Shown one piece after another: positions 38,781-39,225 of a stretch of DNA of 64,000 nt; the stretch's first letter is position 1, and the number at the start of each line of letters is the position of its first letter. Source of the stretch: a virus. Lineage: Duplodnaviria; Heunggongvirae; Uroviricota; Caudoviricetes. The position numbers and the translations under genes are program-made. Below the pieces are notes generated by a model. The model was not told the origin of the DNA, ran no database searches, and saw only the letters and a program-made list of their open reading frames with translations. Where the stretch lies: positions 32,001-96,000 of the IMG/VR virus record IMGVR_UViG_2713896909_000009; one strand, given 5' to 3'.

Positions 38781-38816
38781 TAAAACGAAAAAGGCCACAG
38801 GTTTTACCCTGTGGCC
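38781..38816 (-). terminator. Minus-strand rho-independent terminator after small ORF
   Basis: GGCCACAGG...CCTGTGGCC hairpin; T-run on minus strand. Confidence 0.5.
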
Positions 38817-38870
38817 TGTTCGGGCGCAACGCGCTGCTGTTACACTGCGAACTAACGCCCTTCAATGTTG

Positions 38871-38987
38871 TTATGCAATGTGGAGAAGTGAGGCAATCAC
38901 TGATGCCAACACAGAACTTGAAGCTCCGATGATGACAGGAACAATGATGTTGGTCACAATCCACTTGCAAGCTTTTTGAAGAGTCAT
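38871..38987 (-). CDS. Small hydrophobic peptide (38 aa), candidate type I toxin-like gene
   Basis: MTLQKACKWIVTNIIVPVIIGASSSVLASVIASLLHIA; GGAG 8 nt upstream of ATG; below ORF-track cutoff. Confidence 0.35.
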   Translation of the reverse strand: MTLQKACKWIVTNIIVPVIIGASSSVLASVIASLLHIA

Positions 38988-39057
38988 TACGAAGCTCCGC
39001 ATACTTGCAACAGCAACTGCTTGCGGCTATCCTCTTGTTGTTCAGACATAAGGAATG

Positions 39058-39102
39058 CCCTCGCTGGTTGCCTCCATGCAACGTTGTAGCGAGGGTTTTT
39101 TC
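39058..39102 (+). terminator. Plus-strand hairpin plus T-run opposite the small-ORF leader (possible antisense RNA terminator)
   Basis: CCCTCGCT...AGCGAGGG then TTTTTTCTG; TTGCAA-17-TATCCT promoter-like element at 39005-39033. Confidence 0.35.
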
Positions 39103-39225
39103 TGTCTGGAGGCTACGCATCCAGGAGTTCATAACCCCCGCATAACGTTGCGCCTCCCCTGAAAAACAGGGTTGGGCATATCGTACACATGCCTGTAATT
39201 TATGGCAAATCCTGGTCTGAATACG

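Follow-up and report, generated by a model that had tools for sequence, protein, structure and literature searches.

Does the short interval between ant and kilA in a P1-like phage-plasmid encode a toxin-antitoxin (TA) system of type I and, if so, of which family? We addressed this question in a 64,000-nucleotide window (positions 32,001 to 96,000 of IMG/VR record IMGVR_UViG_2713896909_000009; coordinates below are those of the window), where an initial annotation, made from the sequence alone, had proposed a hok/sok-like locus between these two genes. Both the location and the type I reading were borne out, the latter by homology to an experimentally characterised type I system, whereas the relative proved to be ldr/rdl: no hok/sok signal was obtained with Rfam or Pfam, and a profile of the Escherichia coli K-12 long direct repeat (LDR) units matched the locus at E = 1e-18. 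Our best explanation, to which as a whole we assign a probability of roughly 0.8, is that the interval is a self-contained type I TA cassette of the ldr/rdl (LDR) lineage, which a sub-lineage of P1-like phage-plasmids acquired as a moron-like cassette between ant and the C1-controlled kilA-repL promoter. It is carried by homology, anatomy, a conserved and covarying predicted RNA structure, a conserved open reading frame (ORF) and location on mobile elements.

Homology to the ldr/rdl loci

The starting leads were a weak match of the Rfam rdlD model and a visual resemblance of the encoded peptide to Ldr, upon which the E. coli K-12 ldr/rdl loci (ldrA-D/rdlA-D; Kawano et al., 2002, cited by PMC2887945 and PMC4147584) were fetched. 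Direct alignment revealed locus-wide homology at 53-54% identity, with conserved blocks at the mRNA 5' end (GAGGCGCAAYGTT), in the rdl promoter on the opposite strand (TTGCGGCTATYCT), at the ATGACN start, at GGGCGTYAG, and at TGCGCCCGAAC together with the terminator. When an nhmmer profile of the K-12 ldrA-D units only was compared with the window, a single match was found (39173-38770; 61.1 bits, E = 1.1e-18), spanning positions 48-436 of the 448 in the profile, and the next match in the window had E = 0.23. Together with the fold of the toxin mRNA (z = -8.9), this sets the locus beyond chance. With an identity of no more than about 54%, the chromosomal ldr loci were out of reach of distant blastn searches of E. 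coli genomes, and a profile search with nhmmer was needed.

The spacing of the elements also agreed with K-12. The predicted antitoxin starts 53 nt upstream of the toxin start codon (ATG 38987) and is 64 nt long; in K-12 the corresponding distance and length are 48 nt and 67 nt for rdlA, and 49 nt and 64 nt for rdlD. As in the ldr organisation given by T1TAdb (PMC8594479), the antitoxin (39040-39103, plus strand) lies wholly inside the toxin mRNA (39173-38782, minus strand), 5' of the ORF and with no overlap with it. The chromosomal tandem arrangement of long direct repeats was not seen; the window holds one LDR unit, and this unit is carried on plasmids.

For a broader comparison, at least 56 LDR-type units were collected from one genome per species plus viral contigs. 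The first collection pattern, GGCGCAAYGTT...ATAGCCGC, gave mostly chance matches, which were filtered by nhmmer, and genome coverage was incomplete, so that a chromosomal donor of the cassette may exist. In sequence comparison, the window unit forms a clade of its own, since it is only 50-55% identical to every chromosomal LDR unit.

Predicted toxin gene and toxin mRNA

The features predicted on the minus strand are as follows, from the promoter to the terminator:

39180-39208, minus strand: toxin promoter, with -35 TTGCCA (39208-39203), a 17-nt spacer and -10 TACGAT (39185-39180); predicted start at about 39173
38782-39173, minus strand: toxin mRNA, about 390 nt, with a 186-nt leader, the 38-codon ORF and a structured 3' untranslated region (UTR)
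39157-39171, minus strand: 5'-terminal hairpin CCCUG-UUUUU-CAGGG in the predicted fold
39145-39154, minus strand: 5' arm of the long-range 5'-3' closure, GGCGCAACGU, pairing with 38823-38832
39030-39054, minus strand: leader target hairpin, with a 7-nt loop, CUGAACA (39045-39039), to which the antisense RNA is complementary at its 5' end
39006-39017, minus strand: leader arm of the leader/3'UTR helix, GUUGCUGUUGCA, just upstream of the Shine-Dalgarno (SD) sequence and pairing with 38833-38844
38995-38998, minus strand: SD sequence GGAG, 7 nt upstream of the AUG, read from the sequence
38871-38987, minus strand: toxin ORF, 38 codons plus stop, MTLQKACKWIVTNIIVPVIIGASSSVLASVIASLLHIA
38833-38865, minus strand: 3'-UTR pairing segment, with 38833-38844 facing the leader arm and 38846-38865 facing the SD/AUG region
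38823-38832, minus strand: 3' arm of the 5'-3' closure, GCGUUGCGCC, in the predicted fold
38782-38817, minus strand: intrinsic terminator of the toxin gene, a 10-bp stem (38817-38792) followed by a U-run

The minus-strand elements named in the initial annotation were thus recovered, namely the ORF with its peptide, the GGAG ribosome-binding site (38998-38995), the terminator and the promoter, which was found by scan with 9 of 12 consensus bases. The scan of the region gave three promoter-like sites against 1.1 +/- 1.1 in shuffled sequences, a weak signal by itself; the -35 element recurs as TTGCC(A/T) in L157 and L161, two related units with just 60-65% identity to that of the window, and the predicted mRNA start, 39173, is where the nhmmer alignment to LDR units sets in.

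ATG 38987 aligns with the ldr start codon. A 43-residue reading from ATG 39002 was rejected, as the other copies all have GTG there. No copy has a broken ORF, not even those disrupted by insertion sequences (IS), and variation is confined to two synonymous changes and I10V. In keeping with the small hydrophobic peptides of type I systems, the 38-residue product has a grand average of hydropathy of 1.44, with all 19-residue windows between 1.15 and 2.28, and a single predicted transmembrane helix. Within this helix, P17-VII-G21 corresponds to the P/D/S/T-XXX-G motif (PMC7472228), in the same register as in LdrA and LdrD. The only tryptophan is W9, and the peptide ends in ...ASVIASLLHIA. The window toxin is not a classical Ldr.

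The predicted mRNA is tightly folded. For its 389 nt the minimum free energy was -164.9 kcal/mol, compared with -118.6 +/- 5.2 kcal/mol for shuffles (z = -8.9). The AUG is buried in the full-length RNA, with a probability of being unpaired of 0.01-0.02, which rose to 0.44-0.98 when the last 80 nt were deleted in silico. RNAalifold on 28 distinct units returned the 5'-3' closure, a 10-bp leader/3'UTR helix, the target hairpin, a hairpin complementary to the antitoxin and the terminator. In this consensus 95.4% of cells were paired, against 40-51% with the partners slid, and 20 pairs were changed on both sides; none of 500 shuffles reached the observed values for paired cells, double-change pairs or covariation score, in controls that leave some phylogenetic signal. 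The closure helix (GGCGCA/UGCGCC) is invariant in the 28 units and kept in three mobile units. In the helix homologous to the target hairpin (helix 5 of the family alignment), five of seven pairs are changed on both sides. The leader/3'UTR helix (helix 6) shows double changes at five of 10 pairs, with CG>UA, AU>GC and GC>AU in the window clade and a compensatory CG/UA change also within the mobile clade. The helix at the AUG carries double changes among the mobile units, and the terminator is kept across all clades with compensatory GC>AU changes. The 5' hairpin occupies the same place with other sequences in other clades (CCGG../..CCGG, CCCGA../..UCGGG and GUCAGCG../..CGCUGAC). Moreover, the three most divergent mobile units (60-65% identical) independently gave the same mRNA architecture, with 16 doubly changed pairs. 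As predicted, this architecture is the one expected of a fold-back-locked type I toxin mRNA.

Predicted antitoxin RNA

Two features are predicted on the opposite strand, within the toxin leader:

39005-39033, plus strand: antitoxin promoter TTGCAA-17-TATCCT, the positional homologue of the rdl promoter in all LDR units
39040-39103, plus strand: Rdl-like antitoxin RNA, about 64 nt, with a 17-nt single-stranded 5' tail, a terminator hairpin and a U-run

The initial annotation had described the same promoter, followed by a hairpin plus T-run at 39058-39102 and an antisense RNA of about 60 nt over the leader. Each of these fits what we found. The promoter, present in the sequence with 8 of 12 consensus bases, takes the forms TTGTAA/TTGCAA-17-TATTCT/TATCCT across LDR units, and the hexamers of L157 are identical to those of the window. 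The hairpin and T-run (about 39057-39103) fold at -26.7 kcal/mol (z = -3.4), and by homology the RNA would run from 39040 to about 39103 (64 nt), over the leader but not over the ORF. Model R1, a covariance model trained on 24 Rdl sequences from the chromosomes of many genera and on no window-type ones, matched 39040-39103 on the plus strand over its full length (positions 1-69 of 69) with 28.5 bits and E ~1.6e-5, a rough value from a shortened calibration. The stem covaries between C-G, U.G and U-A.

The leader loop CUGAACA (39045-39039) is the exact complement of the antitoxin 5' end. Predicted seed pairing was -34 kcal/mol with the cognate leader, as compared with about -9 kcal/mol with the ldrA and ldrD leaders of E. 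coli; these modelled energies therefore suggest that the antitoxin may be insulated from the chromosomal Rdl RNAs of the host, a property that addiction would demand. For the antisense 5' tail, no target in trans turned up in the rest of the window. A second match of the covariance model (35863-35935, plus strand; 15.7 bits, E = 0.06) was rejected; it consists of a hairpin rich in GC (GGCCCCGG...CTGGGGC) and then TTTCTTTT, and resembles an ordinary terminator.

Genomic context of the insert

The window represents a P1-like phage-plasmid. Rfam detected the C4 antisense RNA with its a1/b1 targets at 40538-40744 (minus strand), and the genes then follow in the order icd, ant (39226-40272), kilA (37786-38586) and repL. 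Relative to P1, the cassette is part of one insert:

38749-39236, minus strand: whole insert, about 490 bp, between ant and the P53/PkilA-Op53 region

According to the P1 annotation and the junction alignment, about 22 bp of P1, including the last four or so ant codons, were swapped for the insert. P1, P7, SJ46 and related phage records align only up to about 38744 (the kilA 5' end and the P53/PkilA-Op53 region), and the ant stop codon of P1 is a few bases away from this shared block. The initial annotation had held that another function assigned to the same interval in P1 would count against it; this is moot, because the interval does not exist in P1. The insert was not found in 50,697 phage records, even by distant blastn and tblastn. 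On the other hand, it was present at 98-100% identity in 21 PLSDB plasmids, mostly of Escherichia albertii, plus E. coli and one Salmonella. Ten of 5,426 complete E. coli genomes carry it too, as do six IMG/VR contigs; intact copies include those of E. albertii NZ_CP117656 and E. coli CP057476. Its base composition is unremarkable, and the 38-residue ORF was annotated in no record examined.

Several observations concern related records and other parts of the window. In E. coli ST2747 (NZ_CP007392.1 and NZ_CP007393.1, at about 2.228 Mb), the cassette and its ant context occur on records labelled as chromosomes, which suggests an integrated or mis-assembled P1-like element. The related P1-like plasmid NZ_CP020936.1 carries an annotated hokD (L002:539-694) and IS421 beyond repL; at this place the window has a gene for an Ail/Lom-type outer-membrane protein (36303-36818) and P1 has rlfA/rlfB. 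Elsewhere in the window, the Rfam model of the small RNA STnc100 matched 15803-15918 (minus strand) with 47.3 against a gathering score of 47, covering only positions 31-147 of its 206.

Related cassettes on other mobile elements

When 1.84 billion representatives were searched exhaustively with phmmer, one true relative of the toxin emerged, P0002 (38 residues, 53% identity). It is encoded on metagenomic contigs, where its neighbours are a PriCT_2/DUF5906 primase gene, a resolvase gene and IS1, and the LDR-type unit around it is complete, 65% identical to that of the window and matched by the K-12-only profile at E = 2e-25. A 69-residue "partial" E. coli protein (P0001), the sole match of the 43-residue query, was discarded as an artefact, being an IS read-through into the toxin ORF. 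Further relatives were found on the 4.46-kb ColE1-type MOBP plasmid p33.1_4 of Pantoea agglomerans (NZ_CP083812.1) and as two metagenomic variants. The four related toxins, of 37-38 residues and on LDR-type scaffolds, are located as follows:

L157-L160: metagenomic element
p33.1_4: P. agglomerans plasmid
L162/L164
L167

Three of the four carriers are ColE1-type plasmids, and the fourth is the primase/resolvase element; three of the relatives' replicons carry RNAI above the Rfam threshold. We found no published description of these four toxins. Together with the window toxin they share ACKW, G21, a Gly/Ser ladder and a C-terminal H-x-A (ACKW...G...S...H-x-A). The ratio of nonsynonymous to synonymous substitution rates (dN/dS) between the window toxin and its relatives was 0.27-0.33, a crude estimate given the 38 codons and their overlap with RNA structure. 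Sequence homology to L157 and L161 sets in at the toxin -35 hexamer and ceases after the terminator; bounded in this way by its own promoter and terminator, the cassette is therefore a self-contained mobile module.

Some chromosomal LDR scaffolds were also found to carry non-classical peptides, namely those of Kluyvera (L020:889-1249, L093:3265-3627 and L104), Atlantibacter (L059:5029-5388) and Enterobacteriaceae UBA5654 (L088:6942-7313). Their peptides (MTFREALVIAVVTSIIGPIVVALVCHFCNI, MTFKQAFWLAVLTSIIGPIVVALIRYFFSF and MQHVLMAMLQDLTVSTLAGVLSGLILIYLARYRR) are not recognised by Pfam Ldr_toxin, and it seems that the RNA chassis has been conserved while the toxin was replaced. In addition, a contig labelled Chryseobacterium sp. 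(L022, CACSKA010000016.1) holds an enterobacterial LDR-type unit with an organisation near-identical to that in a Scandinavium metagenome-assembled genome (MAG), and it is probably a contamination or a mis-binned contig.

Insertion sequences in the cassette

Five of the 21 plasmid copies are disrupted by IS elements. In the first class, a 1.1-kb IS lies between the leader and the SD sequence in four plasmids (L003:3265-4365, equivalent to about 39003/39004 of the window). In the second, IS1A lies between the toxin -35 and -10 elements (equivalent to 39195; L156, L128, L130 and L140) and removes ant; these copies represent one lineage, because all of them share the I10V toxin variant. Both independent classes disable the toxin side and spare the antitoxin gene, which is the pattern that an active toxin would predict, the number of events being small.

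IS insertions were also seen in other LDR-type units, clustering within about 20 nt before, or at, the toxin start (L003, L048:~6826-6838, L038:~6880 and L022:~4877). In E. albertii, the same IS end (TGTATGGGT...) occurs at the homologous position both in the plasmid unit and in an ldrD-like unit on the chromosome of strain NBRC 107761, and a different IS directly follows the ATG in the Scandinavium MAG and the "Chryseobacterium" contig. This clustering, surveyed with a search pattern that required an intact leader and was biased accordingly, could reflect either target preference or selection against the toxin.

Proposed mechanism and alternative explanations

By homology with ldr/rdl and by analogy with hok/sok, the cassette would most likely work as follows. 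The minus strand would give a tightly folded and presumably stable mRNA of about 390 nt, in which a 186-nt leader precedes the 38-codon ORF for a single-helix membrane peptide. The 5'-3' closure and the leader/3'UTR helix would bury the ribosome-binding region and the AUG, so that the transcript would be translationally inert until refolded or processed. The plus strand would give an Rdl-like antisense RNA of about 64 nt, fully complementary to the leader, whose single-stranded 5' end would dock on the 7-nt leader loop and nucleate a duplex; such a duplex would prevent activation or translation, cause decay by RNase III, or both. If the element were lost or antitoxin transcription stopped, the labile antisense RNA would decay first, and the stable mRNA would yield a toxin that damages the inner membrane. 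That both RNAs are made, that they differ in stability, and that the peptide is toxic and serves the element are points we infer. The role would most likely be maintenance (addiction) or competition of the plasmid-prophage, which is the most plausible because the relatives sit on ColE1-type plasmids; phage exclusion or a coupling to induction is possible.

A regulatory leader ORF, ldrX, has been proposed for ldr/rdl but is unconfirmed (PMC4147584). Its presumed AUG, within GGCGCAAUGUUGCGG of the K-12 units, is not kept from clade to clade; several clades have AAC in its place, and it covaries as a base pair (UA:20, CG:7). In the window sequence, the AUG nearest to the position of GGCGCAAUGUUGCGG opens only four codons.

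Several points weigh against a working ldr/rdl-type cassette. On the side of the peptide, Pfam Ldr_toxin (PF13940) gave no match at E <= 10, with LdrA and a Klebsiella-type Ldr scoring 86 and 58 bits as controls; Pfam and NCBIfam gave no matches to the 38- and 43-residue peptides; a hidden Markov model of classical Ldr, run with filters off, gave 5.1 bits, a score reached by 11 of 1000 shuffles; and the tryptophan after the transmembrane helix and the cluster of charged residues that then follows, by which the Fst/Ldr superfamily is defined (PMC2887945), are absent. On the side of the RNAs, the antitoxin promoter has only 8 of 12 consensus bases and was not listed by the scan, Rfam RF01813 (rdlD) reached 21.1 bits against a gathering score of 50 (E = 0.46, full length, model positions 1-66), and the structures are predictions, for which covariation counts on related sequences can overstate support. 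Furthermore, the dN/dS estimate is crude, the IS insertions in five of 21 plasmid copies could equally mean weak selection, and chromosomal Ldr-RdlD reportedly showed no post-segregational killing (PMC5367252).

Part of this evidence would also fit a decaying or domesticated relic, in which the LDR RNA scaffold survives while the peptide is non-toxic and no working TA pair is left. The missing Fst/Ldr signature and Pfam match, the IS insertions and the reported lack of post-segregational killing by Ldr-RdlD are all what a relic could show. However, the ORF is intact in every copy, even in those disrupted by IS, and five divergent toxins keep ACKW, G21, the Ser/Gly ladder and H-x-A at a dN/dS of about 0.3. 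Moreover, compensatory changes maintain the helices in which the AUG is sequestered, IS insertions are always on the toxin side, and Fst remained toxic after truncation of its charged tail (PMC7472228). We therefore consider a relic unlikely.

Slightly less probable still is an antisense-regulated small membrane protein that is not toxic and acts in lysis timing, superinfection exclusion or membrane regulation. The position of the locus between the immunity (c4-icd-ant) and lytic-replicon (kilA-repL) modules and the atypical toxin type would suit such a protein, but the same cassette occurs on ColE1-type plasmids and on the primase/resolvase element without any phage context, and its entire regulatory scaffold is that of a proven toxin system.

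The hok/sok membership implied by the initial annotation is very improbable. The logic is similar, with a long leader, an antisense RNA over it and a 5'-3' fold-back, and T1TAdb (PMC8594479) notes that RNA-based classifiers confuse the two families. However, no hok or sok Rfam match was present in 37500-40500 at E <= 1, nor in the whole window at gathering thresholds; there was no Pfam Hok/Gef match, the peptide has 38 residues as against about 50, and the K-12 LDR profile covers the whole unit at E = 1e-18, by which family membership is refuted.

An ordinary protein, encoded by the 175-codon frame at 38605-39132 (minus strand) or the 93-codon frame at 38698-38979 (plus strand), is scarcely credible: open frames do exist, and CP043240 and NZ_CP020936 annotate fragments of them as hypothetical proteins, but both frames were rejected as genes for want of a Pfam match, the 175-codon frame, which opens at 39132 and overlaps the antisense target and the toxin start, runs on through the terminator and the PkilA/Op53 region that P1 also has, the plus-strand frame lies opposite the conserved toxin ORF in antisense orientation, and the annotations are inconsistent between records. 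The "hypothetical protein" coding sequences of CP043240.1 and NZ_CP020936.1 (equivalent to 38605-38829, minus strand, and 38581-38979, plus strand) cross the toxin terminator/PkilA or are antisense to the toxin ORF, and are probably artefacts of gene calling.

Implications for the mobility of ldr/rdl systems

The ldr-rdl systems have been described as a single family restricted to chromosomes, without plasmid homologues or post-segregational killing, and have been used to illustrate type I systems that do not move horizontally (PMC2887945, PMC5367252). By RNA and DNA, the cassette described here clearly belongs within the ldr/rdl lineage, and its toxin class and mobile lifestyle are undescribed for that lineage. 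Our literature search, which did not extend to the contents of T1TAdb, found no mention of such a cassette in P1-like phage-plasmids or of the peptide motifs. We are mildly inclined to regard it as part of the first recognised mobile-element clade of ldr/rdl, in which an undescribed class of 37-38-residue toxins is carried on an LDR chassis. This chassis would have moved among ColE1-type plasmids (in Erwiniaceae and Enterobacteriaceae), a primase/resolvase element and P1-like phage-plasmids, where it would act in addiction or competition, insulated from host Rdl.

If true, this would contradict the published view of Ldr as chromosome-only and of type I systems as not spreading horizontally and, together with the variants in Kluyvera, Atlantibacter and UBA5654, would make the scaffold a reusable chassis for swapped toxins. 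It also raises testable questions: whether an ldr-type module mediates addiction on a mobile element; which parts of an Ldr peptide are needed for toxicity, with the tryptophan and the charged tail naturally absent here; and how antisense seeds diverge so that a mobile copy is insulated from the chromosomal paralogues of its host. None of the public records examined annotates the cassette correctly: it is either left without annotation or labelled as hypothetical proteins. As the curated models of Pfam, NCBIfam and Rfam also fail to recognise it, TA or defence surveys of P1-like phage-plasmids from E. albertii, E. coli and Salmonella will overlook it.

Comparison with known systems

With hok/sok of plasmid R1, which serves plasmid addiction, the proposed likeness is mechanistic only: a stable mRNA locked by fold-back is paired with a short, labile antisense RNA that acts on the leader and not on the toxin start. 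The two are not related at the level of sequence or model, and Hok has about 50 residues. A candidate for a mok-like leader ORF in the window, the frame opening at 39132, spans the antisense target as well as the toxin start, but continues for 175 codons past the terminator and has no Pfam match.

Fst/RNAII (par of pAD1) and the Fst/Ldr superfamily share with the window toxin a small single-helix toxin and the PXXXG motif in the helix, and plasmid-borne members of the superfamily act in post-segregational killing. However, the Fst antitoxin overlaps the 3' end of its mRNA and not the leader, and the window toxin lacks the superfamily tryptophan and charged C-terminus.

The likeness to ldr/rdl extends to the order and spacing of the toxin promoter, the 5' hairpin, the GGCGCAAYGUU/UGCGCC closure, the 3'-UTR pairing segment and the terminator, to an antisense gene placed within the leader at about 50 nt upstream of the ATG, to the ATGACN start, to an antitoxin of similar length and shape, and to P17 and G21 of the toxin, which are in register. 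On the other hand, the window toxin has 38 residues instead of 35, lacks the tryptophan plus the RNRK/NKRK tail and is not recognised by Pfam Ldr_toxin. Its antitoxin has no apical AGGU/ACCU stem extension and scores 21 bits against an Rfam threshold of 50, and its antisense seed region has diverged, with weak cross-talk predicted with host Rdl RNAs. Furthermore, the window has a single copy on a phage-plasmid, whereas K-12 has a tandem chromosomal repeat.

The four related toxins are of the same type (42-54% identity), on scaffolds of 60-65% nucleotide identity, and are likewise located on mobile elements. They differ in their carriers, which are ColE1-type plasmids with RNAI or the element with PriCT_2/DUF5906 primase and resolvase, and in that the Pantoea-type toxins lack P17.

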